A stretch of 64,000 bases of DNA, from IMG/VR virus record IMGVR_UViG_3300032516_000003, positions 65,341 through 129,340 of that record. One strand, given 5' to 3'. The notes beneath the pieces were generated by a model. That model saw only the letters and a program-made list of their open reading frames with translations, searched no databases and was not told where the DNA came from. The translations under genes were made by a program, and so were the position numbers. Shown piece after piece: positions 43,994-64,000 of the stretch. The number at the start of each line of letters is the position of its first letter. Within the stretch, counting starts at the first letter, position 1. The DNA comes from a virus.

Positions 43994-44036
43994 TGAAGCC
44001 TCCTACCTGGCAGTGCTCCCGCGCCTGGTAAGCCCT

Positions 44037-44065
44037 GTTGTACATACGTTGTGGGGCCAAGTCAA
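44037..44065 (-). promoter_or_regulatory. sigma70-like promoter candidate (TTGACT -17- TACAAC) upstream of the SF2 helicase
   Basis: Hexamers found on the minus strand in the 68-nt gap. Confidence 0.3.
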
Positions 44066-44556: not shown

Positions 44557-44845
44557 CCTTCAAGAAGCGTTCGATGGGCTTTTCATGCTCCTCCACCTGG
44601 CCGCCTTCATACCGGCCGACCACTCCATCGTCACGGCGACCACTGCCGGTCACCCGAATGCTGGTGCCACTACCGCTGCTGCTGCTTCCTCGCTCGGCCC
44701 GGCTCTCCCGCTCGATCGAGGCGGCGCAGGAATGGCGGAATCGACAGCCGGAGCACTCGCTGTCACTGGGGTCGAAGGACCGCTCATTGCCCCAGCAGTT
44801 GGGCTTCTGAGCGGCCGTTGATCTGAGGTACTCTGCGTAGCTCAA
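44483..44845 (-). CDS. Cys-containing hypothetical protein
   Basis: 120-aa ORF and the first gene of the minus block. It overlaps endo VII by 74 nt, so one of the two starts is probably internal. Confidence 0.3.
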   Translation of the reverse strand: MSYAEYLRSTAAQKPNCWGNERSFDPSDSECSGCRFRHSCAASIERESRAERGSSSSGSGTSIRVTGSGRRDDGVVGRYEGGQVEEHEKPIERFLKDAAAGALRGTFWEMYSFWRSYRIK

Positions 44846-44884
44846 GTTGGCCTCCTTTCATGGGGCGTGCTTGGGGGTTCAGAA

Positions 44885-47241: not shown

Positions 47242-47277
47242 CCGGTGTCGACCCACAGTAGATGCTGACGCCCAGCT

Positions 47278-47478
47278 TTGCAGGTGGACCACATAGACGG
47301 AGGTGGTACTAGGGAGCGCAGAGGCTGCGGCATGTGGCAGTACTACAAGAGCATGCTGCTGCCTGGAGCCAAAGATCGATACCAGCTGCTCTGCGCCAAC
47401 TGCAACTGGATCAAGCGATACGAAGAAAACGAAGATCGGCGAGGTCGCCTGCAAATAGAGATGGCTACACATGTCTAG
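47278..47478 (+). CDS. mini HNH-motif ORF (possibly a truncated HNH endonuclease)
   Basis: VDHIDGGG...LLCANCNWIK. TTG start. It lacks the usual N-terminal Cys pair. Confidence 0.35.
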   Translation: MQVDHIDGGGTRERRGCGMWQYYKSMLLPGAKDRYQLLCANCNWIKRYEENEDRRGRLQIEMATHV

Positions 47479-49219: not shown

Positions 49220-52200
49220 GTGGCTACCTCCTCGATGTTCGGCGGCTCCCAGAGCGCGATGCGCTTCTCCCACACCCGTGGGAGAATCAGCGGCAGTCAG
49301 GACTACGGGCTTCAGTACCCCAGCCCCTTCTTCGACATCGCCCACACGTACCTGCCGGCCACCGTCAAGCAGATGTTCCGGTGGTGCCGGTACTACTTCC
49401 TCGTCAACCCACTGATCAACGCCATCGTAGCCAAGATGTCCGAGTACCCGGTCACGGACATCATCTTCGACACGGAGAAGCCGGAGCTCAAGCAACAGTG
49501 GAAGGACTTCCTGCTGGAGCACCTGCGCTATCGAGCGTTCCAGATCGAGACGGGCCTCGACTACTACACCTACGGCAACACCCTGATCAGCATCTTCTAC
49601 CCCTTCATCAAGCTGCTGGTCTGCCCATCTTGTGGCAAGAAGACGCCGGCCCGCGAGGCGGAGTACCGCTTTCAGAACTTCCAGTTCATCATCAGCTGCA
49701 GCTGTGGTCACCACGGCCCGGCTGATACGGTGGACCACTACATCCGGGCGCCCAAGGGCATCCGGCTGCTGCGCTGGAATCCTGAGGACGTGGACATCCG
49801 CTACAACGACATCACCGGCGAGTACGAGTACTACTACACGGTCCCCACGCCACTGCGGAACGACATCATCATGGGCCGCAAGTCGACGGTGGAGACTGTG
49901 CCCCAGTTGTTCATCGACGCCTTGAGGCTAAAGAAGGCGGTCGTCTTCAGCCGTGACAACATCTACCACTTCAAGCGCCCCACCTTGGCCACCAAGGATC
50001 GCGGCTGGGGCACGCCGATGATCCTGCCGGTGCTGAAGGACACCTTCTACCTGCAGATCCTGCGGAAGGCCCAAGAATGCGTGGCACCCTCGACACTCAT
50101 CGAGTCTGTTAATGGCCTGGTGCCGGCTGATGACGTACGGGTGGGGGATCTAGTTAGAACGCACACCGGCCAGTGGCAGCCAGTGGAGAAGAAGTGGTAT
50201 CGAGATGCCCGCGAGGAAGAGATCGGACGCAAAATCATACTGGCTGGGCTGCGACCGTTTGGTGCTGTCTACTCTCCACAGCACCCGGTGTTTAGCCTTC
50301 GTCGCAACGAGGAGGGTCGGAGGATTGATACCAAGGATCGCCAGCGATCTTCTGTGATCTTGCGCAACCCACACCTCTACGAAGAAGTGCTGTGTCCCGC
50401 CGAGCAGCTACAGGTAGGAGACTACGTGCTCTACCCGCGTCGGCTTCCGACGGAAGATACGACGGTAGACGTAGCCCAGTATACTGGACTGACATCTACA
50501 GATGGCTGGGTCTACAGTGGTTGCGGGGAAGAGACGGCACAGGCGTTTGAGGCTTTGGAGCGCGGTGAACATGTCACGCACGACAATGCAGGGCAGGTGG
50601 CAAAGAGGATCCTGAAGGAGGGCCGTACCCCCAAGCGTATGGCAGCCTCTAGGCTCATGACTGAGGACTTCGCCTACGTCTTGGGCTGGTACGCAGGAGA
50701 CGGCAGTTGTGGCACTCGCCACGTCACATTTTCCTTGGGCAAGAAGGACGACCCAGCGCCATTGATGGCCGCCATCAAACGCGAGTTCGATTCGGTCGCT
50801 ACTGTCGAGATGGGGGAGTCAATCAATTCGGTGGTACTGTCTGATGTCATAGTGCGTCAGCTGATCAAAGGCATGATCCCCGGCGTAGCCAGGATCAAGC
50901 GCGTCCCGATTGAGGTACTGAACGGCACGGATAAGGTGAAGTTGGCCTATCTGCGCGGGCTGTGGGAGGCCGATGGCTGCAGGAGCGAGCATCAAGCGAC
51001 GCTGGCTACCAGCAGCCGCGAGCAGGCGTACGACGTCTATCGCCTGCTGCTACACTTCGGCTGCATTGCTAGCGTAAACCAGCGTCAAACGGCTGACTCG
51101 CAGCTGTCTGACGGCAGAGTCATCGTTGGTGGTACCCACTACCATACAGTGGCCTGCAGTGCGTCTCGTGATCGCCTCATGTCTCTGCTGGAGTGCGGAG
51201 GTGGGCCAGAGATCACTTCAGGCAAGAGCGGCTTCTTCTGGAAGGACTATTTCGCGTCTAGGGTAAGCGCGATCGAGGAGTCTGATGAGGAGCAATACAT
51301 CGACTTCAAGGTCAAGAACGACACCACCTTCTGTACGCCGGGCACAGCGACGAAAAATTCTATTGCGCTCGAACACATCGTGCCTCTGCGAATCCTCTTC
51401 CCACAAGCCGGGTCTGCCACCAGCGACCCGTACTGTCTATCGGTCAGTACATTGGTGGAGATCAATAAGGGATATCTCCCCGCAGGCGAGGTGAAGGTAG
51501 GCGATCTGGTTAAGACCTATCGTGGCAAATACCTTCCGGTGATTGCGATCAAGCGACGCCTGGTCAAGAAAGCGGAGAAGGTGTACGCGATCGGGGTGGT
51601 TGGTATGTCGGCCTTCCCCGTGGAGGCGTCTGAAGACCATCCTTTCTTTGCGGTCCAAGCTGAGGGCCGGCAGAAGAGGTATATCGCGGACTGGCAGCCA
51701 GATTGGGTAGCGACTAAAGACCTGCAGATCGGGGACTATGTTGCCTATCCGTTAGCACGAGAGATCAAGAATAGCCTCTCGGTTGACGTAGCGCAGTATC
51801 TGAGCTCCTACGTGGCTACTGACGAGTGGGTATATCGGCAGATCACGAAGGAGGGGGCAGAAGTCTACGAGTATGTAGAGCAGAGAGAGCAGCGACTATT
51901 TGCGGGAGGAGAGCTGCAGCAAACTGCTGCACAACACGGCTGGTCAGTGCCCACTCTGCAAACTACCGCCAGCCGCTATCGGCGTGGCCATCGAACCTCC
52001 AGGATCCCGCGACATCTCTCATGGTCCAAGCATCTTGCTACGATCGTAGGGTACTACCTGGCCGAGGGTTGCATTGGGAATCATATTACCTTCTCTTTGC
52101 ATAAGAAGGAGACTTGGATCTGCGACGAACTAGATGTCGCCTTCACGGCGCTGTTGGGTAAGAAAGGCACCCGGCGAACTCATGGCGACAATGGCTTGGT

Positions 52201-55075
52201 CTACGAGATCAGTGACAGTATCTTCGGAGAGTTCCTCCAGAACTACCTCGGTCACTTGGCCTGGAACAAGCGACTGCCACAAGAGGTCGTGCATCTTCCA
52301 GACGAGGTCATTCGCGAGCTTGTACGCTGTCTAATCAATGGTGACGGGGGCCGCGAGGAATGTTACCGAGACAACGGTACAGGCAGAGCCTGCCGTACTT
52401 CTTCGATGACGTTCACTTCAACTTCCAGAGACTTGGCCTTGAAGCTACGAGAGTTGTTGCTCTACTTGAGGGTAGTGGGCAAGGTACACCGGACACCTGT
52501 CCGTGAGAGACGCAAGCACGAGATCTTCCGCGTGAAAGTGTCTGGTGCGGAGGCCGTGGGGCTTTGGCAGCAGCTTGGTTGGGCCCTCCCCGAATTGGAG
52601 GTCAAGAAGGACACCACACGTTCCTTCATCCAGGGAGACTACGCCTTCTTCAGGGTGCAGAAGAAGGCGGAGCTCCATGATGTTGACTTCGTCTATGGCT
52701 TCCAGGTGGATGGAGACAAGAGCTTCTGTGTTCCGGCGTGCGCCACCCACAATACCACGGTCAACCTCCAAGACTGGCGTGACCACGTCGCCGGGGAGAT
52801 CAGACGGTGGCGTTGCGTATCACCCGACTCCATGGTTGAAACCATGGAGGGGCTGCGCCCGGCCGGAGAAGTGACAGTAGGAGATTGGCTGAAGAACCGG
52901 CTTGGAGGTTACGATCGCGTAGTCAAGCGTCACGAACGCGCGCTTGATCCAGGGGAGTTGGCGTATCGCCTGAGGGTGCGTGGGCAGCACGCTATTCAGA
53001 CCGTCTACTCTGAGGAACACCCCATCTTTGCCGCGCGCAAGCAGAACAACGGCAACGGCCATAAGCTGGGGGCACGCGAGTTCATTCCTGTAGCTGCACT
53101 CTCTGTCGGTGACTATGTAGGTTATCCTACCCGACGAGATGTCGTAAAGTATGTTGATCTGGACATCTCAGCTCACGTAGATCGGGCGGCTACAGATAAG
53201 TTCGTGTACACCGACTACCTGGAGTCCGATACGCCTCTGGCGTTCGAGTACCTTGAGGCACATCCGCAGGCGGGGGCCGCAGAGGCGGCCGCGGCCTCGG
53301 GGTGTCCAATTACCCCGGCCAAGACGGCGCATAACGCCGTTCGGGAAGGGCGTACGCTTAGACGCATCCCACGGTACCTCCCGTTTGACAAAGATCTGAT
53401 GTACGTGCTCGGCCTCTACGTGGCCGAAGGCAACGCTACACCCAAGCAGGTGATGTTCTCCTTGCACAAGGACGAGACCGAGATCTGTCAGCGTCTGGAC
53501 AGCTTCTTCCTGTCACGGTTTGGTGCGCACAGAACTGGCGGGCAGAAGACTGAGAATGGGATCCAGATCGCTTACAGCAGTGTCATCGCTGCTCAGGTAT
53601 TCCATGGGCTGGTTCCTGGTATAGCCATGAACAAGCGTCTGCCAGAAGCAGTTCGCCAGGCATCAGACGAACTAGCACTTGAGGCAGTGCGTGGCGTACT
53701 TGATGGTGATGGGTGCTACTATACCGACAAGACGGTGTTGGGAACCGCTAGTCGGCAGCTAGCAGAAGATGTGCGTCAACTGCTGCTATCTTGGGAAATC
53801 ATGCCCGGCATTTCTTTTGTTTCGGGCGGTCCCACCATCATCTGTGGTCGCGAGACCGTAGGCCACGGCTGCTACCTCGTTCAGGTCTCTGGTGACCAGC
53901 ACGCCAAGCTACAGGCACTCTTGCAAGGGGTGTCCTATACGGGTGCTGAGCACTGTAGATCAGGGCTATTCCGGGATGGCTTTGCCTGGTTCCGCATTGA
54001 GGCCATCGAAGAAGCTGAGCCGGAGAAGGTAGTGGCCTTCCAGATGGATGGTGACAGCACCTTCTGTACCTGGGGCGTGGCCACTCACAATAGCGACAAC
54101 AACTACATCCCCATCATGCCGCTGCCCATCGGCAACCAGACTATCGGCGGGGATGGCCGGGCCCTGCTTCTCAGCCAGGAGATCCGGGTATGGTCGGAGC
54201 ACATCGTGGCTGGGATGGGCGTACCAGTAGAGCTCATCTTCGGCGGCATGAGCTACTCGGGTAGCAACGTGTCGCTGCGCATGCTGGAGAACACCTACCT
54301 CGGCTACCTGCAGGACCAGCTCTCACTGCTGCGCTGGGTCATCCGCAACGTGTCCTCCTACTTGGGCTGGGCACCAGTGCGGGCCCGCTTCAAGCCGTTC
54401 AAGATGGCCGACGACCTGCAGCGGAAGGCCTACCTGTTCCAGCTGAGCCAGGCCGGCAAGCTCTCGGACGAGTCACTCCTGGCGGACGCCGACTTCGACT
54501 CGACCAAGGAAGACGCGATCATAGAGCGTGAGGCCTCCCGCCGTTCGGAAGCGCTACGCAAGCAGCAACTCATGCAGGCTGACATCCAGGGTGAAGCCCA
54601 GATGCAGAGCATGAAGTGGCAGACCAAGGCGCAGACCAAGGCGCTGAAGGAGCAGACGGCCATGCAGAACGAGATGGCCAAAGATCAACTGGCTACTCAA
54701 GCCGCCGCGCAGCAGGGACAGATCCCGCCGCCGCTGCCTCCTCGACCTGACCTGATTCAGCCGCCTCAGGAAGTGAAGTCACCACTCACCCTGCAGTCGG
54801 TGCAGCCCATCACCCCGGCCACCACCGGCGAATCCCTGGTCGGCCAGCAGAACATCGACCTGCTCTACCTCGGCCGCCAGCTCGCCGATCGCATCAACAA
54901 CATGGATGAGCTGCAGAAGCCGCAGGCCTTGGCGCAGCTGCGTGAAGACTCACCACAACTCTATGACGTCGTCTTGGGGCTAATGGCAAGCGGACCGAAG
55001 GGTCAAGTATCCGCCGGGCGGCCCCTGCCTGAGCAGAGACCGCCACGGCGGGGTCCAGAGAGCAGCTTGATCTAA
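49220..55075 (+). CDS. portal (T7 gp8-like head-tail connector) carrying three inteins. Mature extein about 658 aa
   Basis: Extein NNYIPIMPLPIG...GDGRALL resembles T7 gp8 YIPIRMVRLDGESYG, and the Q-rich C-terminal helix resembles gp8's C-terminus. The 1951-aa ORF minus inserts of 427, 440 and 426 aa gives about 658 aa. Confidence 0.65.
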   Translation: MATSSMFGGSQSAMRFSHTRGRISGSQDYGLQYPSPFFDIAHTYLPATVKQMFRWCRYYFLVNPLINAIVAKMSEYPVTDIIFDTEKPELKQQWKDFLLEHLRYRAFQIETGLDYYTYGNTLISIFYPFIKLLVCPSCGKKTPAREAEYRFQNFQFIISCSCGHHGPADTVDHYIRAPKGIRLLRWNPEDVDIRYNDITGEYEYYYTVPTPLRNDIIMGRKSTVETVPQLFIDALRLKKAVVFSRDNIYHFKRPTLATKDRGWGTPMILPVLKDTFYLQILRKAQECVAPSTLIESVNGLVPADDVRVGDLVRTHTGQWQPVEKKWYRDAREEEIGRKIILAGLRPFGAVYSPQHPVFSLRRNEEGRRIDTKDRQRSSVILRNPHLYEEVLCPAEQLQVGDYVLYPRRLPTEDTTVDVAQYTGLTSTDGWVYSGCGEETAQAFEALERGEHVTHDNAGQVAKRILKEGRTPKRMAASRLMTEDFAYVLGWYAGDGSCGTRHVTFSLGKKDDPAPLMAAIKREFDSVATVEMGESINSVVLSDVIVRQLIKGMIPGVARIKRVPIEVLNGTDKVKLAYLRGLWEADGCRSEHQATLATSSREQAYDVYRLLLHFGCIASVNQRQTADSQLSDGRVIVGGTHYHTVACSASRDRLMSLLECGGGPEITSGKSGFFWKDYFASRVSAIEESDEEQYIDFKVKNDTTFCTPGTATKNSIALEHIVPLRILFPQAGSATSDPYCLSVSTLVEINKGYLPAGEVKVGDLVKTYRGKYLPVIAIKRRLVKKAEKVYAIGVVGMSAFPVEASEDHPFFAVQAEGRQKRYIADWQPDWVATKDLQIGDYVAYPLAREIKNSLSVDVAQYLSSYVATDEWVYRQITKEGAEVYEYVEQREQRLFAGGELQQTAAQHGWSVPTLQTTASRYRRGHRTSRIPRHLSWSKHLATIVGYYLAEGCIGNHITFSLHKKETWICDELDVAFTALLGKKGTRRTHGDNGLVYEISDSIFGEFLQNYLGHLAWNKRLPQEVVHLPDEVIRELVRCLINGDGGREECYRDNGTGRACRTSSMTFTSTSRDLALKLRELLLYLRVVGKVHRTPVRERRKHEIFRVKVSGAEAVGLWQQLGWALPELEVKKDTTRSFIQGDYAFFRVQKKAELHDVDFVYGFQVDGDKSFCVPACATHNTTVNLQDWRDHVAGEIRRWRCVSPDSMVETMEGLRPAGEVTVGDWLKNRLGGYDRVVKRHERALDPGELAYRLRVRGQHAIQTVYSEEHPIFAARKQNNGNGHKLGAREFIPVAALSVGDYVGYPTRRDVVKYVDLDISAHVDRAATDKFVYTDYLESDTPLAFEYLEAHPQAGAAEAAAASGCPITPAKTAHNAVREGRTLRRIPRYLPFDKDLMYVLGLYVAEGNATPKQVMFSLHKDETEICQRLDSFFLSRFGAHRTGGQKTENGIQIAYSSVIAAQVFHGLVPGIAMNKRLPEAVRQASDELALEAVRGVLDGDGCYYTDKTVLGTASRQLAEDVRQLLLSWEIMPGISFVSGGPTIICGRETVGHGCYLVQVSGDQHAKLQALLQGVSYTGAEHCRSGLFRDGFAWFRIEAIEEAEPEKVVAFQMDGDSTFCTWGVATHNSDNNYIPIMPLPIGNQTIGGDGRALLLSQEIRVWSEHIVAGMGVPVELIFGGMSYSGSNVSLRMLENTYLGYLQDQLSLLRWVIRNVSSYLGWAPVRARFKPFKMADDLQRKAYLFQLSQAGKLSDESLLADADFDSTKEDAIIEREASRRSEALRKQQLMQADIQGEAQMQSMKWQTKAQTKALKEQTAMQNEMAKDQLATQAAAQQGQIPPPLPPRPDLIQPPQEVKSPLTLQSVQPITPATTGESLVGQQNIDLLYLGRQLADRINNMDELQKPQALAQLREDSPQLYDVVLGLMASGPKGQVSAGRPLPEQRPPRRGPESSLI
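50078..51358 (+). mobile_element. portal intein 1 (427 aa, LAGLIDADG type)
   Basis: ...RKAQE|CVAPSTLIES... with VLGWYAGDGSC and LRGLWEADGC. Ends TFCTPGTATKN with +1 Ser, so the penultimate residue is Lys rather than His. Confidence 0.75.
51434..52753 (+). mobile_element. portal intein 2 (440 aa, LAGLIDADG type)
   Basis: ...SDPY|CLSVSTLVEINKG... with IVGYYLAEGCIG and LVRCLINGDGG. Ends SFCVPACATHN with +1 Thr. Confidence 0.75.
52814..54091 (+). mobile_element. portal intein 3 (426 aa, LAGLIDADG type)
   Basis: ...IRRWR|CVSPDSMVETMEG... with VLGLYVAEGNAT and VRGVLDGDGCY. Ends TFCTWGVATHN with +1 Ser. Confidence 0.75.
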
Positions 55076-55836: not shown

Positions 55837-55880
55837 GAGATAGGTCTCCTTTCTCTATGATACTTATACCTCAGGGCGAA

Positions 55881-55917
55881 CAAGAGTCTTATGCCACCGA
55901 ATGTTGCGGAGTTGCAG
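55881..55917 (+). promoter_or_regulatory. conserved 37-nt motif, copy 2 (caagagtCTTATGCCACCGAAtgttgcgGAGTTGCag)
   Basis: Lies 49 nt upstream of the RNAP start codon. See copy 1. Confidence 0.4.
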
Positions 55918-55965
55918 AAGGATGGGACTCTCTGATACCCTCTACCCATGTGATGGAGGACATAG

Positions 55966-58900
55966 ATGGCACGCCTGTCCCCGGAAGAGGGCTTTCAAGT
56001 CCTCGGAGACCGGGTCAAGGAGACGCTGACGGGCCTGTTCCCGATCGTAGGCAAGAAGCACACCCTGAGCCTTGATCAGGTAGAGGTCAAGGACAACCTC
56101 GATCTGGACGACATCCGCAGCCAGAAGGAAGCGCGCCTCAGCGGGCGCTCCTGGGCTGTTCCCGTTGAGGGTCGGGTGGCACTGGTGGACAATGCCACTG
56201 GTCGCGCCGTCGACTCGCAGAAGATCCGGCTGCTCAGCCTGCCCAAACACACCCGCCGCTACACGCACATCGTCAACGGCCGCGAGAAGCAGATCGACAA
56301 CCAGTGGCGGTTGAAGTCCGGCGTGTACGCTCGCATCAAGGAGAACGGCGAGCTGCAGTCGGACTTCAATCTGCGCAAGGGTGGCCGCGGCTTCGACATC
56401 GAATTCGATCCCAAGACCCACCAATTCAAGCTGGCGTACGGCACCTCGAACATCCCGCTCTCGCCACTCATGCAAGAGCTTGGCGTCCCGCGCGACACCA
56501 TTGAGCAGCAGTGGGGCAAGGAGATCACCAGCGCCAATCATGCTGATCGCGACCAGGCGGTGGCCAAGTTCTACCGCGCCTCGGTGGGCAAGCCCCCAGA
56601 GAGTCTGGAGCAGGCACGGGCCCATCTGCGTGACTCCTTCCAGAAGATGGAGGTCCGGCCGGACACCACGAGGATCACCTTGGGCAAGGAGCACACCCAG
56701 GTCACTGGTCACACACTGATGGACGCGGCCACCAAGCTGCTCCACGTCAGCCAGGGCAAGGCCCAGCCGGATGCTCGTGATGCGCTCATGTTCAAGGAGC
56801 TCCACTCGGTCGAGGACTTCATGGCTGAGCGGCTGCGTAAGGGCTCCCGCGACATCTTCCGCCGCATCCAGAACACCCTCGACAAGAAGACCAGTGTCCG
56901 CGACATCGTCGGTCCTAACATCTTCCACGGACCGATCGAGACGATGTACCGCACCTCACTGGTGAACGAGCCCAAGCAGATCAATCCGCTGGAGATGATC
57001 TCCGGCCAGATGAAGACCACCATCACTGGCGAGGGTGGCATCCAGAATGTCTACGGCATCACTGACGACGCCAAGCTGGTAGATGCCTCTCATCTGGGCT
57101 TCCTTGATCCCATTCACACGCCCGAGGGTGAAGCGACCGGCGTCAACCTGCGCTTGCCGTTGGGGGTCAAGAAGGTCGGTCACGACGTCGTAGTCCGAAT
57201 GTTCAACGTCCGGACTGGCAAGATGGAGCAGATCAATCCTGAGAAGGCGATGAATGCCACGGTAGCCCTGCCAGATCAGGTGAAGTGGGTTGGCGGCAAG
57301 CCCCACCCACTCGGCAAGGACGTACAAGTCAGTGGCCCCGGGAATGAGATCAAGACGGCCCCATTCAAGTCGGTCGACTACGTCATGCGAGACCCATCGC
57401 AGATGTTCTCGGTGTCGTCCAACCTGATCCCTTTCTTGCCCGCTGACCACCCCAACCGTAGCACCATGGCTGGCCGTCACATGGAGCAGGCCATATCACT
57501 GGTCCATCGCGAGCCGCCGCTGGTCCGGTCTGCCATCGTCGGCGGCAAGAAGATCATAGATGAGTGGGTCGGCAAGTTCGCTGGCCACAGCTCTCATGTG
57601 GATGGCACGGTGACGAAGGTGCAGAACGACGCCATCCACGTCAAAGACAAGGATGGCAAGAAGCACGAGATCCAGATCTACGATCACTTCCCGCTCAACG
57701 ATGACAAGTCTTTCCTCCACTCCACCCCGCTGGTGAAGGTGGGCGACCGAGTCAAGAAGGGCCAGCCGATCGCGGACAGCAACTTCACGCGTGGTGGCAC
57801 CCTGGCCTTGGGCACGAACCTGAAGGTCGGCTACTTGCCCTACAAGGGCTACAACTTCGAGGACGGTGTGGTCATCAGTGAGTCTGCGGCCAAGCAGCTC
57901 ACCAGCGAGCACCTGCACCAGAAGTCACTGGCTCTGGACAAAGAGCATGTGCTGGACAAGGCCAAGTACCAGGCCTACATGCCTGGTCGCCTGAATCGCG
58001 ATCAGATGGCCAAGATGGATGACGACGGGGTGGTCAAGCCGGGGCAGCTCGTGATGCCTGGCGACCCGCTAGTGCTGGCTCTGAAGAAGCACTCCGACCG
58101 GGGAGAGGATCGAGATCTGGCGCGGTTGCACCGCTCTCTGGTAAAGCCCTACCGAGATGACAGCATCATCTGGGAGCAGGATCATCCAGGTGTAGTGCAG
58201 GAGGTGGTGAAGCACGGCAAGCAGATCCTCGTGCACGTCAAGACCCAGGAGCAGGCAGAGATCGGGGACAAGGTGGCCGGCCGCCATGGCAACAAGGGGA
58301 TCATCACGTGTCATGATCAATGGACGGAGGTGCTGACTGGTCGCGGTTGGCTCAAATTCGAAGAGCTGCGCAAGGACGATCTCGTCTGCACTCTGAATCC
58401 AGAGACAGACGAGATCGAATATCACCGACCCACAGCCACTATCAGTCAGCAGCATCAGGGAAAGATGTTCCTGTTCGATGGGCCTCGTGTGAATCTATGT
58501 ACCACCCCTGAACATCGTCACTGGATACGCCCAATTCGTGGCGGGGCGTATCACTTCGAGACCTCGAAGGAGGTACACGCCCATGGCACGGTACACAAAC
58601 GTGGTGGATCGATTTGGGGTGGTACAGCAAAGAGACGAATCACGATCCCCGGTAGGCCAGCATTCAGGAAGGGTTGGCACGAGTACGATAGTCCGCGGTC
58701 TTACAACGCTGACGATTTCTTAGAATTCTTCGGGTACTGGATTACTGAAGGCTGCTTGTCTCGTAGTAGTGTGGTGATCGGGCAATCTCTTAACGCCAAT
58801 CCAGACACTTATGCGGCGATCAGGGCGTGTCTAGAGCGACTGGGGTACCGTGTGTCTGCGGGGTCGACCAGTTTGGCGATTGGGGATCCGCGGCTGGCCT

Positions 58901-61900
58901 ACTGGTTGCGCCAGTTCGGTCTATCTAAGAACAAGTCCATTCCGCGAACGTTCATGAGCTTGACCAAGCACCAATTGGCGATCTTGATGGATGCTATGAT
59001 GGCTGGGGATGGATGCATCTATTACGATGCCCGCCACAACCACACCAGACACGAGTTCTGCACCTCTTCCAAGCGGCTTGCAGATGACGTCCAAGAACTA
59101 GCACTGAAGCTGGGTCACAGCGCCAATATTAAGGTGAACATTCGTAAGAAGACGGGTGCTCACGAATACGTGGTGCGTTTTAGCTTCAAGGATGAAGTCT
59201 TCGTCAACAACGATAAGCGGGTGAATTGCTCTCGTTGGATCGATTACGCGGGACCAGTCTATTGTGTGGACGTGCCCAACCACATCGTCTACGTGCGCCG
59301 TAACGGTGTCCCAGTCTGGTCTGGCAATTGCATCATCCCAGATCATGAGATGCCCAAGACAGCAGATGGTCCGCTCCATATTCTCCTGAACCCGGCCGGC
59401 GTTCCTGGTCGTACCAACCTGGGGCAGGTCTTGGAGACCGCAGTCTCCAAGGTGGCGCTGAAGACGGGCAAGCCCTATCTGGTGCAGAACTTCGCCCCCA
59501 ACGCCGACTTCCACACCCAAGTATCGCAAGAGCTCAAGAAGCACGGCCTCACTGACAAGGAAGAAGTCTTCGACGGCGTCTCCGGCAAGAAGCTGGGAGA
59601 GGCACTGGTTGGCGTCCAGCACATCCTCAAGCTGCAGCACCAGGTGGAGAAGAAGCTCTCGGCTCGTGCTGGTGGTCCTGGTTATGCCTATGATCGCAAC
59701 TTGATCCCCCGTGGTGGTGGCGCTCACGGTGCCCAGTCACTAGGCGCTCTCGGCCTGTATGCCATGTTGGCCCATGGGGCCAAGGCCAACCTGCGCGAGA
59801 TGCAGACGGTGAAGAGCGACTCCGAGCAGAGCGATGAGTTCTGGGCCGCACTGCAGGCCGGTGAGCCACTTCCTGCCCCACGCCCGACCTTCGCCTACAA
59901 GAAGTTCCTGGGCTACATGACCGGCCTGGGATTGAACGTGAAGAAGGAAGGCAACAACCTCCAGCTCATCCCCTTCACCGACAAGCAGGTGGAGCAGATG
60001 AGCAACGGTGCCTTGCCTGATGCCGCGAAGATGGTCCACGCCAAGAACCTCAAGCCAGAGGTGGGTGGCAGCTTCGATCCCCACCTCACTGGCGGAGAGA
60101 GCGGCACCAAGTGGACCCACATCCGGCTGCCAGAATCCTTCCCCAACCCAGTCTTCGAGCATCCGATCCAAGCCCTGCTGGGCATCACGCACAAGGACTT
60201 CGAGGCGGTGATCGCCGGCCAGAAAGGACTGCATCCCACCACGGGGAAGCTCGTCGAGTCACATCTGGGACTCACTGGCGGTCATGCCTTCGACCAGGCC
60301 TTGGGCAGGATCGACGTGCAGAAGGAGCTGCGCACCGCCACCACCCAGCTAGCCAATCCCGGGCTCAAGGGCAACCGCCTCGACCAGATCAACAAGAAGA
60401 TCAAGTTCTTGAAGGCACTGGACAGCGCCGGCCTGTCTCCACGTGAAGCCTACATGCAGCAGAACATCCCGGTCATGCCGCCGGTGTTCCGCCCGGTCTC
60501 CCAGCTACCCAACGGCGACCTGAACGTCGATGACGTCAATCACATGTACAAGGGCATCGCCCTGTCGGCCAGCCGTCTCAAGGTGATGTCACCGCTGCTG
60601 CCGCCGGAAGAGAAGAACGAGGTCCGGGCCGAGGTCTACGACGGCCTGCGCTCACTGGCGGGTCTGGGCGGCCACATGAACCGGAAGTTCCGCGGCATCC
60701 TCGACATCATCTCTGGCCACCGTCCCGACAAAGAGACCGGTGAGAAGGTCGGCGCCCCCAAGTACGGCTACTTCCAAGATCGACTGGTGAAGCGGAAGCA
60801 GGACCTGAGCATGCGCTCCACCATCATCCCCGAGCCGTCTCTTGGTCTGGACGAGGTGGGCATTCCGCGGAAGGCCGCAGTCGAGCTCTACAAGCCCTTC
60901 ATCGTCAGGGAGTTGCGGACTCTGGCCGGCATGACCCCGCTGGAGGCCCAGCAGCACATCAAGGACAATGCCCCCATCGTTGATCGGGCATTGGAGCGGG
61001 TGATCACTGACCGTCCCATCCTGCTCAAGCGCGATCCAGTGCTTCACAAGTATGGGGTGCAGGCCTTCAAGCCGCGCATCGTTGGCGGCAAGGCGGTGCA
61101 GATCCACCCGCTGGTGACCTCGGGCTACAACGCCGACTTCGACGGCGATGCCATGAGCGCCTTCGTCCCAGTCGGCAATGAGGCCGTGGCTGAAGCGCAC
61201 AAGATGTTCCCCTCCAACAACCTGTTCAGCCCGGCCACCGGCTCGATCGCCTATGCCCCGACCCATGAGGCTCTACTCGGACTCTATGGGGTCACCAGGA
61301 CCGGGGGCAAGACCAACAAGACCTTCAAGAATGTAGAGGAGGTAGAGGCCGCTCTACGCAAGAGTGAGTTGCAGCTGAACGACCAGATCAAAGTGGGTGG
61401 CCTGGCTAGTACTGCTGGTCGTTTCCTCGTTGGCGGGGCGCTTCCCGAGCCGATGCGGCGACCGTTCCTCACCAAAACTGAGCCGCTGGACAAGAAGGCC
61501 CAGCAAGAGCTGTTGACTCACTTGGCCACGAACCACCCCCACGATTACGGCCCGGTGGTGGACAAACTGAAGAATCTCGGCAACCGCTGGTCTACCGACA
61601 CGGCCTTCTCGATCGGCTTGGAGGACATCAAGCCGGAGAAGGAAGCGCGAGACAAGATCTTGGCGGCCGCGCACAAGGCGGCCGCGGGGACCACCGGCAC
61701 CCAGCACGAGCGGGATCGAAAAGCCATCGACATCTACTCGCAGGCCACGGAGCAGATGCACAAGGAGCTAGGGAAGCTGGACGAGCAGCACAGCTCGCTG
61801 ATCACCATGAGTCGGGCCGGAATCAAGCCGACGATGGACACGCTCCGTCAGATCAAGATGGCGCCGATGCTGTTCATGAACGCCAAACGGGAGGTCATCC

Positions 61901-63141
61901 CCTCACCCGTGACCAAGTCCTTCGCTGAGGGCCTGGATCTGGCCGGCTACTGGACTTCAATGAGTGGGGCTCGCAAGGGCATCATCCAGAAGGTCCAGGC
62001 CGTGCAGGAGCCAGGCTACGTCACCAAGATGATCATGAACTCGGTCATGGATAACCTGATTATGGACCATGACTGTGGTACCGACAAGGGCATTGCTCTA
62101 CACATCGACGAGAAGGATATCCTCGATCGGCACCTGGCGATCGACCACAAGGCTGGCAAGCACGTCTTCAAGGCTGGCACCCTGGTCACGCCAGAAGTAC
62201 GGACTGCCCTGCGGAACAACAAGGTGGGTCGAGTAGTAGTTCGCTCCCCGCTGCGCTGCCAGCATGGGCCGGGGGTCTGTCAGAAGTGCTTCGGTCTGGC
62301 CGAGAACGGCAGACACCCGGAGATCGGGACGAACATCGGCGTGATGGCAGGCCAGGCCATTGGCGAACGCGCCACGCAGCTGGCGATGAAAAGCTTCCAT
62401 ACTGGTGGCACGGCAGCCACGTTCACCGGGCTCGTGGATGAGTTCAGCCGGGTGAAGAACCTGTTGACGTTCCCGTTGACCCTGCCGAACTCGGCCACGC
62501 TCAGCTCCGTCTCGGGGCGGGTAGAGAAGGTCGAGAAGGACCCGGCCGGTGGCCACAACGTCTTCATCGGTGGCACGCGCCACTACGTGCCCCAGAGTCG
62601 TGGCATCCCGCAGTTCGATGGAAAGTCACTCAGGTCGGGGGTGGAGATCAAGAAAGGCTCGCCGATCTCCGCCGGCCCGGTCAATCCCCACGAGATGCTG
62701 CCACTCACTGGCATTGAAGCAGTACAGGGTCACCTGTCTGATGAGCTGCACAAGCTCTATGCCTCTGAAGGTATCCGGCGGCGCAACCATGAGGTCGTGG
62801 TGAAGGCCATGACCAGCGTCACCAAGATTGAAGATCCAGGCAGCCATCACGGCTTCATCCGGGGGGACTTTGCACCGGCCGCGCTGGTTGCTAATCTGAA
62901 TCGGACAGCACCCAAGACGGCCAAGCCCATCATTCACAAGCCGGTGCTGCGCGGAGTGAACATCCTGCCACTGGACCTGCACGAGGACTGGATGGCGCGA
63001 TTGAATCACGAGCGGCAGACCCAGACAGTACTGGAAGCCGCGCAGAAGGGCTGGATCAGCAAGATCCACGGCACCCACCCCATCCCAGCGATTGTGCATG
63101 GGGCCGAAGTGGGTAGAGGAGACAAACCATGGCTCTACTAG
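55966..63141 (+). CDS. single-polypeptide bacterial-type RNA polymerase: reduced beta fused to beta', with an intein in beta
   Basis: Beta motifs: GFLDPIHTPEGEATG, HPNRSTMAGRHMEQAISLV, GYNFEDGVVISE, GDKVAGRHGNKG|intein|IIPDHEMP...LNPAGVPGRTNLGQ, and ..LREMQTVKSDS. Beta' follows without a stop: IPVMPPVFRP, LKRDPVLHKYGVQAF..GKAVQIHPLVTSGYNADFDGDAMS, GERATQLAMKSFHTGG. No zinc-binding CxxC is present at the beta' N-terminus. Confidence 0.85.
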   Translation: MARLSPEEGFQVLGDRVKETLTGLFPIVGKKHTLSLDQVEVKDNLDLDDIRSQKEARLSGRSWAVPVEGRVALVDNATGRAVDSQKIRLLSLPKHTRRYTHIVNGREKQIDNQWRLKSGVYARIKENGELQSDFNLRKGGRGFDIEFDPKTHQFKLAYGTSNIPLSPLMQELGVPRDTIEQQWGKEITSANHADRDQAVAKFYRASVGKPPESLEQARAHLRDSFQKMEVRPDTTRITLGKEHTQVTGHTLMDAATKLLHVSQGKAQPDARDALMFKELHSVEDFMAERLRKGSRDIFRRIQNTLDKKTSVRDIVGPNIFHGPIETMYRTSLVNEPKQINPLEMISGQMKTTITGEGGIQNVYGITDDAKLVDASHLGFLDPIHTPEGEATGVNLRLPLGVKKVGHDVVVRMFNVRTGKMEQINPEKAMNATVALPDQVKWVGGKPHPLGKDVQVSGPGNEIKTAPFKSVDYVMRDPSQMFSVSSNLIPFLPADHPNRSTMAGRHMEQAISLVHREPPLVRSAIVGGKKIIDEWVGKFAGHSSHVDGTVTKVQNDAIHVKDKDGKKHEIQIYDHFPLNDDKSFLHSTPLVKVGDRVKKGQPIADSNFTRGGTLALGTNLKVGYLPYKGYNFEDGVVISESAAKQLTSEHLHQKSLALDKEHVLDKAKYQAYMPGRLNRDQMAKMDDDGVVKPGQLVMPGDPLVLALKKHSDRGEDRDLARLHRSLVKPYRDDSIIWEQDHPGVVQEVVKHGKQILVHVKTQEQAEIGDKVAGRHGNKGIITCHDQWTEVLTGRGWLKFEELRKDDLVCTLNPETDEIEYHRPTATISQQHQGKMFLFDGPRVNLCTTPEHRHWIRPIRGGAYHFETSKEVHAHGTVHKRGGSIWGGTAKRRITIPGRPAFRKGWHEYDSPRSYNADDFLEFFGYWITEGCLSRSSVVIGQSLNANPDTYAAIRACLERLGYRVSAGSTSLAIGDPRLAYWLRQFGLSKNKSIPRTFMSLTKHQLAILMDAMMAGDGCIYYDARHNHTRHEFCTSSKRLADDVQELALKLGHSANIKVNIRKKTGAHEYVVRFSFKDEVFVNNDKRVNCSRWIDYAGPVYCVDVPNHIVYVRRNGVPVWSGNCIIPDHEMPKTADGPLHILLNPAGVPGRTNLGQVLETAVSKVALKTGKPYLVQNFAPNADFHTQVSQELKKHGLTDKEEVFDGVSGKKLGEALVGVQHILKLQHQVEKKLSARAGGPGYAYDRNLIPRGGGAHGAQSLGALGLYAMLAHGAKANLREMQTVKSDSEQSDEFWAALQAGEPLPAPRPTFAYKKFLGYMTGLGLNVKKEGNNLQLIPFTDKQVEQMSNGALPDAAKMVHAKNLKPEVGGSFDPHLTGGESGTKWTHIRLPESFPNPVFEHPIQALLGITHKDFEAVIAGQKGLHPTTGKLVESHLGLTGGHAFDQALGRIDVQKELRTATTQLANPGLKGNRLDQINKKIKFLKALDSAGLSPREAYMQQNIPVMPPVFRPVSQLPNGDLNVDDVNHMYKGIALSASRLKVMSPLLPPEEKNEVRAEVYDGLRSLAGLGGHMNRKFRGILDIISGHRPDKETGEKVGAPKYGYFQDRLVKRKQDLSMRSTIIPEPSLGLDEVGIPRKAAVELYKPFIVRELRTLAGMTPLEAQQHIKDNAPIVDRALERVITDRPILLKRDPVLHKYGVQAFKPRIVGGKAVQIHPLVTSGYNADFDGDAMSAFVPVGNEAVAEAHKMFPSNNLFSPATGSIAYAPTHEALLGLYGVTRTGGKTNKTFKNVEEVEAALRKSELQLNDQIKVGGLASTAGRFLVGGALPEPMRRPFLTKTEPLDKKAQQELLTHLATNHPHDYGPVVDKLKNLGNRWSTDTAFSIGLEDIKPEKEARDKILAAAHKAAAGTTGTQHERDRKAIDIYSQATEQMHKELGKLDEQHSSLITMSRAGIKPTMDTLRQIKMAPMLFMNAKREVIPSPVTKSFAEGLDLAGYWTSMSGARKGIIQKVQAVQEPGYVTKMIMNSVMDNLIMDHDCGTDKGIALHIDEKDILDRHLAIDHKAGKHVFKAGTLVTPEVRTALRNNKVGRVVVRSPLRCQHGPGVCQKCFGLAENGRHPEIGTNIGVMAGQAIGERATQLAMKSFHTGGTAATFTGLVDEFSRVKNLLTFPLTLPNSATLSSVSGRVEKVEKDPAGGHNVFIGGTRHYVPQSRGIPQFDGKSLRSGVEIKKGSPISAGPVNPHEMLPLTGIEAVQGHLSDELHKLYASEGIRRRNHEVVVKAMTSVTKIEDPGSHHGFIRGDFAPAALVANLNRTAPKTAKPIIHKPVLRGVNILPLDLHEDWMARLNHERQTQTVLEAAQKGWISKIHGTHPIPAIVHGAEVGRGDKPWLY
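58309..59328 (+). mobile_element. intein (340 aa, LAGLIDADG type) in RNAP beta between GNKGIIT and IIPDHEMP
   Basis: Starts at Cys782 (CHDQWTEV). Contains FFGYWITEGCLS and LMDAMMAGDGCI. Ends ...NGVPVWSGN with +1 Cys, so the penultimate residue is Gly rather than His. Confidence 0.7.
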
Positions 63142-63773
63142 TTTTAGTAGAGCCTGGACGTCCAGGACCGAAGCCCAAAGACATCACGGGCATGAAGTTC
63201 GGGATGCTCACTGCTGTCCAACCCACAGGGAAGAGTAACCACTATGGCATAATCTGGCTGGCCCGGTGTGATTGTGGCAACGAGATCGAAAGGGGTGCTT
63301 CGGAACTGCTCAGGAAGCCGAAGAGGAAGACACAGGTGCCCCAGAACTGTGGTTGCTACCGCAAGAGGAACCGCAGCCCAAAGTACAAGGGTGTGGGTGA
63401 TCTATCGAGCACTAGATTCAGGAGGGTGCTAGCACAAGCTAAGCAACGGGGCATTCCCTTCAAGATCACGATTCGTCAAGCCTGGGATCAGTTCCTGCGA
63501 CAAGATGGCAAATGCTCCTTGACTGGGGTTGCCCTTGCCATGAGTCCCAGCAGTATGAAGGAGGGGGCTAGCACGGCCTCTCTTGATCGAATCGACAGTA
63601 CCAAAGGTTACGTCCTGGGCAATATCCAGTGGGTCCATGTAGCAATCAACTTCATGAAACACTCGCTTCCGGAGGAGGAGTTCGTGCGCTGGTGTTGTCT
63701 GGTAGCTAAGCATAAGGGCCGTGCATGGGGCCGAGATTGGCAAGGGCAAGCATCCATGGGAGTACTGACATGA
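63129..63773 (+). CDS. HNH-type homing-endonuclease-like protein
   Basis: WLARCDCGNE...CGCY and SLDRIDSTKGYVLGNIQWVHVAINFMK fit an HNH_3-like LDRID..GNY..N..W pattern. GAGGAG SD. Lower GC. Lies directly after the RNAP gene. Confidence 0.45.
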   Translation: MALLVLVEPGRPGPKPKDITGMKFGMLTAVQPTGKSNHYGIIWLARCDCGNEIERGASELLRKPKRKTQVPQNCGCYRKRNRSPKYKGVGDLSSTRFRRVLAQAKQRGIPFKITIRQAWDQFLRQDGKCSLTGVALAMSPSSMKEGASTASLDRIDSTKGYVLGNIQWVHVAINFMKHSLPEEEFVRWCCLVAKHKGRAWGRDWQGQASMGVLT

Positions 63774-64000
63774 TCGAGAACTTCGAAGCAGTCACCGAGT
63801 CTTTCATCGATGAGCTGGAGAAGATCGGGAGCACCTTGGGCACGATTGGGTCTCGTGCGGCAGAGGGCGTCGGCCAGCTGTTCGGACCCGGGAGAGCGGG
63901 ATTCTTCGGCCGAGTCGGGGAGGCCTGGAAGAAGTCTGGCAAGCTCATTCCCGGTGAAGGTCAGGCGAGTCCGGGAATCGTGCGGAGGCTGCGGCATACG
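63770..64000 (+). CDS. hypothetical protein, 3' end outside window
   Basis: ATG overlaps the upstream stop as ATGA. The frame stays open to the window edge. Confidence 0.35.
   Translation, partial: MIENFEAVTESFIDELEKIGSTLGTIGSRAAEGVGQLFGPGRAGFFGRVGEAWKKSGKLIPGEGQASPGIVRRLRHT

Follow-up and report, generated by a model that had tools for sequence, protein, structure and literature searches.

In cellular RNA polymerases (RNAPs), an alpha-dimer scaffold together with omega is needed to unite the beta and beta' subunits. Engineered beta-beta' fusions reportedly exist for E. coli, and the RpoB-RpoC fusions that occur in cells keep the zinc ribbon of beta'. Natural RpoB-RpoC fusions of about 2900 aa are known from Helicobacter and Wolinella (Zakharova et al. 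1999; PMC1557499). In these proteins as well as in the engineered fusions the C-terminus of beta is joined to the N-terminus of beta', which is also the order found in the phage protein described here, and the join in the cellular fusions and in the phage protein exploits the proximity of both termini in the assembled enzyme. However, the cellular fusions work with alpha2, omega and sigma, whereas the phage protein has 2051 aa and no linker, has dropped the first ~20 residues and the zinc ribbon of beta', and is encoded in a phage structural module.

Multisubunit RNAPs of the phiKZ/AR9 type are likewise relatives of beta and beta', which work without alpha or omega, and one set of them is packaged into the virion for host-independent early transcription. 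In contrast to the enzyme studied here, which is one chain and is readily recognised by bacterial profiles, they consist of four or five or more separate polypeptides, have diverged strongly and occur as two paralogous sets. The statement of a first-pass annotation of this DNA that the multisubunit RNAPs of jumbo phages (phiKZ, AR9) are split into several genes agrees with the reviews (PMC7598289, PMC7824862). Ralstonia phage RP13, for which 'subunit beta/beta'' is given, is an example; we considered it as a fusion and rejected it, its arrangement being split and phiKZ-like. Other phage RNAPs, i.e. crAss-like gp66, YonO and the tape-measure-fused RNAP of P23-45, resemble the present enzyme in that the whole catalytic centre lies in one large polypeptide, but they consist of hardly more than the two barrels and are missed by RpoB/RpoC profiles, whereas the enzyme here has a near-full beta/beta' domain set. 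The RNAPs gp66, P23-45 and N4 are packaged and injected; the N4 vRNAP is a functional analogue, which is T7-like and unrelated.

The mReC (multisubunit-RNAP-encoding Caudovirales; Weinheimer & Aylward 2020, PMC7481178) are similar to the phages studied here in that they are tailed phages from metagenomes with near full-length beta and beta', which contain NADFDGD, are recognisable with cellular profiles and do not belong to the fragmented phiKZ type. However, the definition of mReC asks for a Caudovirales contig on which beta (COG0085) and beta' (COG0086) are different proteins with at least 800 aa each, whereas both are found in one protein here, and in 48 rows of the supplementary table beta and beta' are separate throughout, with about 1000-1400 and 900-1390 aa, respectively. 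Judged by these rows, mReC is therefore not the fused family, and we rejected the identity of the two. The paper makes no mention of a fusion in mReC (PMC7481178). Most of the database-matched large terminase subunits (TerL) of mReC fall into PF03237 and VOG01069, and a T4-like major capsid protein (PF07068) is a further mark of this clade; the TerL here matches GpA_ATPase. Open-access papers and bioRxiv yielded no text that explicitly describes a beta-beta' fusion in a phage, and the single-gene beta-beta' layout in phages appears to be undescribed.

A single phage gene encodes beta and beta'

The window, i.e. the whole stretch of 64,000 nucleotides of viral DNA that was analysed, contains a fused rpoB-rpoC-like gene on the plus strand (55966..63141). 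Its ORF runs from ATG to TAG over 2391 codons with no internal stop, and the longest ORF overlapping it in another frame has 328 aa. A Shine-Dalgarno sequence (GGAGGA, 55955..55960, +), read from the sequence, is located 5 nt 5' of the ATG at 55966. Directly from the sequence, translation would yield a precursor of 2391 aa and 264 kDa, and after computational removal of an intein the predicted spliced product has 2051 aa, 225 kDa and a pI of 9.3, which matches the ~225 kDa that had been proposed.

The beta motifs and the subsequent beta' motifs quoted in the first-pass annotation were each found in the ORF in the order claimed. They comprise TPEG (aa 385), GYNFED (628), GDKVAGRHGNKG (767), LNPAGVPGR (1141) and VKSD (1282) for beta, followed by PVMPPVFRP (1502), NADFDGD (1722; 61129-61149, +) and the trigger loop MKSFHTGG (2141; 62386-62409, +) in the beta' part. 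The Pfam matches follow the same order along the ORF, with Rpb2_2, Rpb2_3 and Rpb2_6 ahead of Rpb1_1, Rpb1_2, Rpb1_3 and Rpb1_5, in addition to LAGLIDADG_3; strong Pfam and PDB matches extend over almost the whole length of the enzyme. According to Pfam and the residue alignment, the one polypeptide carries both double-psi beta-barrel (DPBB) domains. Judged by its sequence, the phage gene is a bacterial-type beta-beta' fusion, which is predicted to provide the full catalytic core in one chain.

The beta half is complete and the beta' half lacks the N-terminal zinc ribbon

The complete bacterial-type beta is made up of ORF residues 1-781 and 1122-1329. The N-extein (beta residues 1-781; 55966..58308, +) ends with GDKVAGRHGNKGIIT and corresponds to about residues 52 to 1076 of E. 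coli beta, while the C-terminal part (aa 1122-1329; 59329..59952, +), which holds LNPAGVPGR and VKSD, ends with LGLNVKKEG, the counterpart of the E. coli beta C-terminus LGINIELE. On the beta part, Pfam reported Rpb2_6 (7.7e-54), Rpb2_3 (3e-5) and, weakly, Rpb2_2, and the family HMM aligned with E. coli beta residues 52-228, 422-932 and 1048-1338 (span 52-1338). An AlphaFold model of the N-terminal 781 aa reached a pLDDT of 90, and in a Foldseek search with it all of the 50 best PDB matches were bacterial beta chains (TMq 0.79-0.84, E <= 5e-54). Thus, both profiles (Pfam, family HMM) and structure bear out the RpoB-like nature of the N-terminal half.

The stretch of beta ahead of TPEG had been described as short (~380 aa compared with ~560 in E. 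coli), and indeed residue 385 is the counterpart of E. coli T563. Most of the shortening of beta is confined to the equivalent of E. coli beta residues 228-422, which hold the lineage-specific insertion SI1 and are represented by only ~62 family positions. Since whole bacterial beta chains superpose on the N-terminal 781 aa, we conclude that the domains of the enzyme are not truncated. To call the enzyme reduced, as had been done, is therefore too strong, because its smaller size is mainly due to the absence of E. coli-specific insertions and the loss of the zinc ribbon. In the profile alignment, the E. coli beta active-site residues R678, E813, D814, K1065, K1073, R1106 and H1237 are all identical in the phage protein. 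The rifampicin pocket is substituted (Q513N, D516K, H526G, S531T and I572N in the profile alignment), and the enzyme is therefore predicted to be rifampicin-insensitive.

The beta' part (ORF aa 1330-2391; 59953..63138, +) is equivalent to residues ~17-27 to 1347 of E. coli beta', with SI3 absent. The family HMM covered E. coli beta' 141-1347, and a phmmer search against PDB gave a beta' match at 1e-106. The AlphaFold model of this part had a pLDDT of 84, and bacterial beta' chains again made up 50 of the 50 best Foldseek matches in PDB (TM ~0.70, E <= 1e-55). Profile alignment against E. coli indicated conservation of the beta' residues R425, D460/462/464, M932 and H936, and at the second zinc site (62071-62289, +) the four cysteines C814, C888, C895 and C898 are all kept. 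Among 64 homologs with identities down to 45%, many positions of the active site do not vary, from which we conclude that they are under purifying selection. The two double-psi beta-barrels, NADFDGD, the beta lysines, the bridge helix, the trigger loop and the second zinc site would together form a normal active centre, and the conservation of this centre as well as the fold suggest that the protein would be an active polymerase.

As had been noted before, beta' has no N-terminal zinc ribbon. According to hhalign and the family alignment, E. coli residues ~67-98 are missing at the deletion site, which reads TGGESG (60088..60105, +); in the hhalign alignment (91% probability, E = 1e-6), a gap of 32 residues coincides exactly with E. 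coli beta' C70/C72/C85/C88, and the ribbon is missing from 25 out of 25 aligned family members.

The junction is conserved in a large metagenomic family

A search for other fused rpoBC genes, which had been suggested by the first-pass annotation, revealed a large family, which has 702 representatives in a library of 1.84 billion proteins (E <= 1e-30). At least 120 of the homologs are full-length with 44-68% identity; most of them align from end to end, and the longer ones contain insertions. The fused layout, which had been regarded as unusual, is thus no rarity and is common to hundreds of uncultured phages. Fused sequences are already present in NCBI, where they are simply labelled rpoB. When the gene was compared with 50,697 phage records by megablast, no match was obtained, and relatives were found by protein-level searches only.

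At the beta/beta' junction (...KKEG|NNLQLIPFTDKQ...; 59950..59958, +), there is no linker, stop or change of frame, and this holds family-wide. Placing the junction required a profile comparison with hhalign, since a pairwise alignment to the N-terminus of E. coli beta' was too weak and not significant (score 29 compared with a shuffle mean of 27.5). The window derives from a short-read metagenome assembly, in which a lost stop or a frameshift could in principle have merged adjacent rpoB and rpoC genes into a single ORF. A genuine stop or frameshift at the boundary had accordingly been named as the observation that would speak against the fusion; instead, the homologs show an unbroken and conserved junction, which contains no stop in an alignment of 25 homologs that stem from many independent samples, and which is covered by all of the best 150 of the 702 representatives. 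Furthermore, beta' begins at the junction without its first ~20 residues and with no intergenic remnant, and the cultured phages Arash and D69 likewise read through the junction. Because hundreds of independent sequences share the junction, we conclude that it is not a frameshift artefact, and we consider the probability of an assembly or sequencing error to be negligible. The exact same protein occurs on two contigs.

Cultured phages carry the same gene in pieces

Salmonella phage Arash and the Vibrio phages D69 and D181 have the same gene after the portal gene, in two or three pieces. Arash Gp206 and Gp216 and the homologs of D69, D181 and D148 are orthologous to the window protein, with 31-34% identity and colinearity over 97% of the length. 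They share with the window gene both the read-through from beta to beta' and the position behind the portal gene, but beta is joined only to the N-terminal half of beta' in these phages, and the C-terminal half is a separate gene. The cut within beta' results in proteins of 1525 and 606 aa, whereas the window gene is uninterrupted except for its intein; the equivalent of the gene break of Arash (Gp206|Gp216) and D69 (0261|0264) is located at 61398..61411 (+), at about residues 553-571 of E. coli beta', where the window protein is continuous. In D181 and D148 there is a second cut within beta, beside a homing endonuclease gene. The Arash paper labels Gp206 simply as beta subunit (PMC10585845). 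A tblastn search against the Arash record gave matches in two places only, which are the two pieces of the same RNAP.

The gene lies in a phage structural module

The upstream neighbour of the RNAP gene is the portal gene (49220..55075, +), which contains three inteins and has a total extein length of ~650 aa. It was identified by tblastn with D69 0259 and with Arash Gp204 (E = 5e-47), so that the portal noted earlier next to the RNAP gene is homologous to that of Arash. This structure is also supported by blastp with the intein-less portals of the loci L009 and L010 and by Pfam matches to Hint and LAGLIDADG. The order of portal, RNAP, baseplate-spike-like gene and TerL is conserved in L003, L009 and L010, and the TerL (positions 24066-26990 of L003) matches PF05876 GpA_ATPase and phrog_675, and not PF03237. 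The 194-kb contig carries phage replication and tail genes, and the RNAP gene is located within the structural module.

Helicobacter and Wolinella have fused rpoB-rpoC (PMC1557499), which raises the question of a cellular origin, either as mis-binned bacterial DNA or as a recent capture of such a fused gene. However, the gene is flanked by portal and baseplate-spike/terminase genes on a 194-kb phage contig, this synteny is kept in other phage contigs, and the aligned bacterial beta and beta' chains share only ~18-25% identity with the phage protein. The protein also has no zinc ribbon and has 2051 aa, compared with ~2900 aa for the cellular fusion. We therefore regard a cellular gene as extremely unlikely and consider the RNAP to be a phage protein.

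No alpha, omega or sigma homolog had been seen near the gene, and this observation held in our searches: among the ~50 ORFs of the window, none had a Pfam match to alpha, omega or sigma, and no sigma of the Arash Gp10 type was detected in 84 kb of the 194-kb contig. A tblastn search for sigma with Arash Gp10 gave no match. An HMM built from 124 sigma-like proteins, which recovered Arash Gp10 at 1e-83 as a positive control, had no match in the window, L003, L008, L009 and L010. Database searches with Gp10 and its profile returned many sigma-like proteins, some of them on contigs of 150-182 kb, none of which is tied to this contig. A single RNAP set was seen in the 84 kb. No promoter was found in a scan for the sigma-70 consensus upstream of the RNAP gene, an 8-mer enrichment screen of the intergenic regions for a promoter motif gave weak repeats only, and a search of the window for tRNA genes was negative. 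The surfaces for sigma docking (clamp helices and flap tip) are retained in the phage enzyme, and a sigma-like protein is packaged by Arash, but the 84 kb searched here yielded no sigma gene.

Probable virion packaging and possible function

In the virion proteome of Arash, Gp206 had the highest number of spectra of all proteins (3516), and Gp216 had 1210 (PMC10585845). Gp206 thereby ranked ahead of the major capsid protein, and a sigma-like protein was present in the particles too (PMC10585845). The proteome listed 116 of ~270 proteins, and the authors point out that some enzymes are possibly carry-over (PMC10585845). Since the gene is located in the structural module and its orthologs are most abundant in Arash virions, the enzyme is most likely packaged into the capsid, which the first-pass annotation had not anticipated; this probable packaging is based on the module location and on Arash as one distant relative with 31-34% identity. 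Overall, it is likely that the gene encodes a single-chain, alpha/omega-independent RNAP, which is packaged in the virion and delivered for early transcription.

Alternatively, the enzyme could be a non-virion polymerase, which is made after infection for middle and late genes like the non-virion RNAPs of phiKZ and AR9. The caution of the Arash authors that abundant enzymes may co-purify with particles would fit this, and expression with the late/structural module points to a late protein, which would be equally suited as a late-gene polymerase. On the other hand, Gp206 has the most spectra in purified Arash particles, even ahead of the major capsid protein, and both RNAP pieces are present in these particles together with the sigma-like protein. 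Moreover, tblastn revealed one set in Arash, and a phage bypassing or shutting off the host RNAP would need that set at the start of infection. We thus consider an exclusively post-infection role to be rather unlikely and favour a virion RNAP.

A capsid-packaged enzyme that is delivered with the DNA would be able to transcribe early genes without the host polymerase. The linker-free covalent link could replace the alpha-dimer scaffold and omega, for which the Helicobacter fusion and the engineered E. coli fusions are precedents, and a single chain would guarantee reassembly after ejection. As a more tentative possibility, which we consider conceivable but less probable than not, the fusion could itself be an adaptation to injection, with the 225-kDa chain being packaged, passing through the tail in an unfolded state and regaining its fold in the host with no need for alpha, omega or another assembly partner; as its zinc ribbon is lost, the enzyme might use a non-canonical specificity factor or none. 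If this were true, it would be the simplest natural bacterial-type RNAP, and a widespread one.

The family would represent a natural, abundant and minimal enzyme of 2051 aa with a full bacterial active centre, apparently without alpha, omega and the beta' zinc ribbon, and it adds a group outside the published mReC clade to the known phage RNAPs. If active alone or with a small factor, the enzyme would be a compact model for how multisubunit RNAPs assemble and evolve, a candidate for a rifampicin-insensitive transcription tool, and a third way to deliver a polymerase through a phage tail, beside the phiKZ type and the N4 vRNAP. With Arash as a cultured relative, the hypothesis is directly testable.

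Inteins and homing endonucleases

The catalytic GNKG motif of beta is interrupted by a class-1 intein (58309..59328, +), which is 340 aa long and includes a LAGLIDADG homing endonuclease. It starts with Cys1 (CHDQW...), has TPEH as block B and ends with SGN followed by Cys+1; its two LAGLIDADG motifs are LEFFGYWITEGC and LMDAMMAGDGC (Pfam LAGLIDADG_3, 1.9e-7). The penultimate residue is Gly instead of the usual His. The GC content of the intein is 0.53, compared with 0.61 in the exteins. The alignments to Arash Gp206 and D69 0261 break at 58311 and 59326, in agreement with the intein boundaries. Intein-less homologs read GNKGIITKIIPD, and excising the insert gives a conserved, colinear protein. 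Judged by its intact splicing residues, the intein would self-excise from GNKG and thereby release the 225-kDa enzyme.

A catalytic motif that is split by an intein with an atypical penultimate residue could also belong to an inactive relic, which is either disabled by the intein or retained for a role in the particle structure or in ejection, with no activity as a polymerase. Against this, every catalytic residue checked is conserved, and many active-site positions are invariant in the 64 homologs, which indicates purifying selection. In addition, the intein retains Cys1, TxxH, the terminal Asn and Cys+1, and many homologs are free of any intein. A relic is therefore very unlikely, and we favour a functional polymerase.

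Downstream, a free-standing HNH endonuclease gene (63129..63773, +), which matches phrog_3322 (1.3e-23) and phrog_374, shares 13 nt with the end of the RNAP gene including its stop codon; L009 and L010 have no HNH gene at this position. Homologous inteins occur in the same motif of the homologs P0050 and P0080. The fused RNAP gene is an unusually dense target for inteins.

One chain carries bacterial-type beta and beta'

The fused rpoB-rpoC-like ORF at 55966-63141 (+) starts with ATG, stays open through 2391 codons up to a TAG stop, and is preceded by a Shine-Dalgarno sequence identified by inspection (GGAGGA, 5 nt 5' of the ATG on the same strand); the longest overlapping ORF in another frame spans 328 aa. 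Pfam searches identified Rpb2 domains 2, 3 and 6 (E = 7.7e-54 for domain 6), followed by Rpb1 domains 1, 2, 3 and 5; a LAGLIDADG_3 domain lies between the two series. All beta and beta' motifs quoted in the first-pass annotation were found in the order indicated there, and its reading of beta and beta' as one polypeptide is borne out by the stop-free frame and the succession of Rpb2 and Rpb1 domains.

The insert at nt 58309-59328 (+; aa 782-1121, 340 aa) lies within the beta motif GDKVAGRHGNKGIIT|C. It starts with Cys, has TPEH as block B, bears the LAGLIDADG motif twice and ends with SGN followed by Cys, i.e. its splicing residues are intact; its GC content is 0.53 compared to 0.61 in the flanks, and alignments with orthologs that lack the intein are interrupted precisely at its two ends. 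From the splice motifs, the LAGLIDADG motifs, the GC content and the alignment breaks we conclude that the insert is a class-1 intein with a homing endonuclease, which is expected to splice out. The protein without the intein has 2051 aa (computed 225.4 kDa, pI 9.3).

The fusion is seamless. The end of the beta part (...LGLNVKKEG) matches that of E. coli beta (...LGINIELE(DE)), directly after which the chain continues without a linker as NNLQLIPFTDKQVEQMSNG..., a stretch aligning to E. coli beta' from residue 27 (hhalign profile-sequence, 91% probability, E = 1e-6). When 25 family members were combined into a profile, it aligned to E. coli beta at residues 52-228, 422-932 and 1048-1338, and to beta' at 141-946 and 1133-1347; the unaligned parts coincide with the E. 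coli lineage-specific insertions SI1, SI2 and SI3. The catalytic core is conserved, including R678, E813, D814, K1065, K1073, R1106 and H1237 of beta (E. coli numbering) and R425, D460/462/464 and the trigger-loop residues M932 and H936 of beta', and the enzyme is likely to be active as a polymerase. While the second zinc site of beta' is kept (C814, C888, C895 and C898 all conserved), the N-terminal zinc ribbon (E. coli C70, C72, C85, C88) is covered exactly by a 32-residue gap in the hhalign alignment, and the motif GLFDPxxTGGxxGxKWSHI stands at this position in 25 of 25 aligned family members, which confirms that beta' has lost this element, as noted from the sequence before. The gaps relative to E. 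coli are lineage-specific insertions and the zinc ribbon. The earlier description of the enzyme as reduced holds for these missing parts, but needs softening, since the domain set is essentially complete.

AlphaFold2, run with a 64-sequence family alignment, yielded models of the N-extein (pLDDT 90, pTM 0.86) and of the 1179 post-intein residues (pLDDT 84, pTM 0.76). In Foldseek searches of the PDB, the former matched bacterial beta chains only (TMq 0.79-0.84, E <= 5e-54), so that the N-terminal half is indeed RpoB-like, and the latter matched bacterial beta' chains only (TM about 0.70, E <= 1e-55). From these exclusively bacterial matches we conclude that the enzyme is of the bacterial type, as opposed to the archaeal, eukaryotic and phiKZ-like ones. 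Of the sigma-docking surfaces, both the clamp helices of beta' and the flap tip of beta are retained and can be aligned. The rifampicin pocket carries the substitutions Q513N, D516K, H526G, R529K, S531T, L533T, I572N and R687E, and the enzyme would be insensitive to rifampicin.

The fusion is shared by a large phage group

A word-indexed search of 5.8 billion proteins placed the best 120 of 569 clusters of homologs at 44-68% identity; listed homologs of ~2030-2160 aa align end to end, and longer ones bear insertions. Their sources are JGI, ENA, Logan and NCBI, and their contigs reach about 200 kb; one of them is CAB4131671.1, labelled "rpoB [uncultured Caudovirales phage]". A 301-aa query centred on the beta/beta' junction gave 702 matches at E <= 1e-30 among 1.84 billion cluster representatives. 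The listed matches are mostly 2000-4700 aa long, shorter entries appearing to be contig-end fragments, and the junction is covered within the best aligned stretch in 150 of 150. A frameshift or missed stop at the boundary had been considered as a possible artefact; with the junction spanned in all of these representatives and full-length homologs, the fusion is genuine. The exact protein is present on two contigs, and the window lies within a 193,704-bp contig (ENA ERZ27248201 k141_3956766). The initial observation is real and its interpretation supported, except that the solution, described as unusual, is not unique in view of the 702 representatives. A large, unstudied group of phages, with cultured relatives in which the gene is partly split, has the single-chain RNAP as its type architecture.

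Fused rpoB-rpoC genes occur in Helicobacter and Wolinella (PMC1557499), whose enzymes, however, are cellular, about 2900 aa long and dependent on alpha, omega and sigma. Enzymes of the phiKZ/AR9 type are fragmented and highly divergent (PMC7598289, PMC7824862), whereas crAss gp66, YonO and the P23-45 enzyme are likewise single chains, yet retain little beyond the two barrels. Multisubunit-RNAP-encoding Caudovirales (mReC) have near-complete beta and beta' as two proteins in every supplementary-table row examined of the respective paper, which makes no mention of a beta-beta' fusion (PMC7481178). No description of a fused phage beta-beta' family was found in the open-access literature and bioRxiv. 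What is new is a phage-encoded, single-chain RNAP of the bacterial type without the zinc ribbon, which is probably virion-borne.

Cultured relatives and gene position

Among phage records, the nearest relatives are Vibrio phages D69, D181 and D148 (31% identity at 97% coverage) and Salmonella phage Arash; in each of them the RNAP gene follows the portal gene. In D69 (locus coordinates 7962-15013, two pieces) and Arash, beta and the N-terminal catalytic half of beta' make up a protein of about 1525 aa, and a separate protein of about 606 aa holds the remainder. RNAP is cut within beta' in these phages, whereas the window protein is continuous at the equivalent place (nt 61398-61411, E. coli beta' about 553-571); no sequence is missing at the break. 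D181 RNAP (locus coordinates 2962-10944) consists of three pieces, with beta split again and the first two pieces separated by a gene for a homing endonuclease; compared to D69, this is a natural example of a gene fragmented in association with a homing endonuclease and illustrates how splits can arise.

Arash Gp206 (locus coordinates 7920-12497) has been annotated and discussed as "beta subunit" (PMC10585845). An assignment to beta alone is ruled out, as its sequence also covers beta' in its N-terminal half, with the part that aligns to NADFDGD; Gp216 supplies the C-terminal half only. In purified Arash virions, Gp206 had the most spectra (3516) and Gp216 had 1210 among 116 listed proteins, which also included the sigma-like Gp10 (PMC10585845). 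Gp10 homologs bear a Sigma70 region-3 domain.

The window belongs to a tailed-phage genome with baseplate wedge/J-like and large tail proteins, DNA ligase, an InPase-domain protein and a minus-strand replication block (RusA, RecA-like, HU, PolA, primase, DnaB, UDG-family protein, helicase, endonuclease VII). The RNAP gene is placed in the structural module: the adjoining upstream 1951-aa ORF matches the Arash portal Gp204 (E = 5e-47), in agreement with the first-pass annotation, and downstream follow a free-standing HNH endonuclease gene (63129-63773, overlapping the last 13 nt of the RNAP ORF including its stop codon), a small ORF, a gene for a baseplate hub/spike-like protein (Phage_base_V, phrog_430), a 670-aa protein, further genes and an intein-bearing large terminase (TerL). 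Portal, fused RNAP, a 391-502-aa protein, a 657-670-aa protein and TerL keep this order in the loci of two more distant family members (L009, L010), as does the divergent replication block upstream; the HNH gene has no counterpart at the same position in either.

From homology and gene position we infer that the enzyme would be packaged in the virion and enter the cell together with the DNA to carry out early transcription. Packaging is probable, and it is the weakest link of this proposal, relying on a relative at 31-34% identity and its 116-protein proteome. Consistent with the earlier reading, sigma, alpha and omega domains were not found in about 50 window ORFs, and a search for an Arash Gp10-type sigma over 84 kb of this contig and over L009 and L010 was negative (positive control 1e-83). 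The enzyme may be independent of alpha and omega, the covalent link replacing the scaffold as it does in the Helicobacter and engineered E. coli fusions. The divergent region upstream of the gene (55837-55965) has the second-lowest GC content among intergenic regions (0.48), and no sigma-70-like promoter was found in it.

Several further features of these loci were observed. The motifs AGTGCTCCCG and the palindrome-like CAGTAGATGC recur between genes (23929-24032, 43994-44061, 44557-44859, 63774-64000; 38839-39114, 47242-47331) with weak intergenic enrichment, and might act as regulatory sites or form terminator stems. In both distant family members, the minus-strand replication block is headed by a gene for a small regulator of the HTH_3 (XRE) type (L009 1825-2241, L010 5198-5644), which faces the portal-RNAP module; the window has an endonuclease VII gene at the equivalent place. 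For the 608-aa InPase-domain protein (20749-22575; PF18823, 1.8e-38), the matching PHROGs carry the annotations minor head protein, virion structural protein and DarB-like antirestriction; it could be a further protein that is packaged or injected.

Inteins accumulate in catalytic motifs

Among the homologs compared (P0024, P0025, P0028, P0029, P0043, P0044, P0050, P0080), the fused gene is an intein hot spot with at least 7 distinct insertion sites, each within a catalytic motif: TPEG|, GDKL|, GNKGI|, LLNP|, HGAK|, NADFDGD| and the trigger-loop FH|TGG. Up to three insertions occur in one homolog, two of them 8 residues apart. The window intein and the clearly homologous P0050 intein occupy host-motif positions two residues apart (GNKGIIT|C|IIPD vs GNKGI|C|TKIIPD; intein-less consensus GNKGIITKIIPD), an apparent shift of the insertion point. 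Junction-query alignments are broken at about position 195, i.e. extein residue about 1045, the site of the zinc-ribbon deletion, in P0269, P0339, P0348, P0372, P0374, P0380, P0381 and P0394 among others; in some of them a large insertion may be present there, be it an intein or a domain that is retained or novel.

The portal gene (49220-55075) is interrupted by three inteins (about aa 288-722, 759-1196 and 1219-1644), of which two are set apart by extein pieces of about 20-40 residues only, and its extein pieces match the intein-less portals of L009 and L010 (657-675 aa). PolA (30711-33749), the DnaB-like helicase (35977-38838) and TerL (24066-26990 of L003, the TerL-bearing locus of the same genome) each contain a LAGLIDADG intein, which, including those of portal and RNAP, amounts to at least 7 inteins within about 45 kb. 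With the free-standing HNH gene at the RNAP stop codon and two endonuclease VII genes nearby (window 44062-44556, L003 21476-21997), homing endonucleases appear to have colonised this genome heavily.
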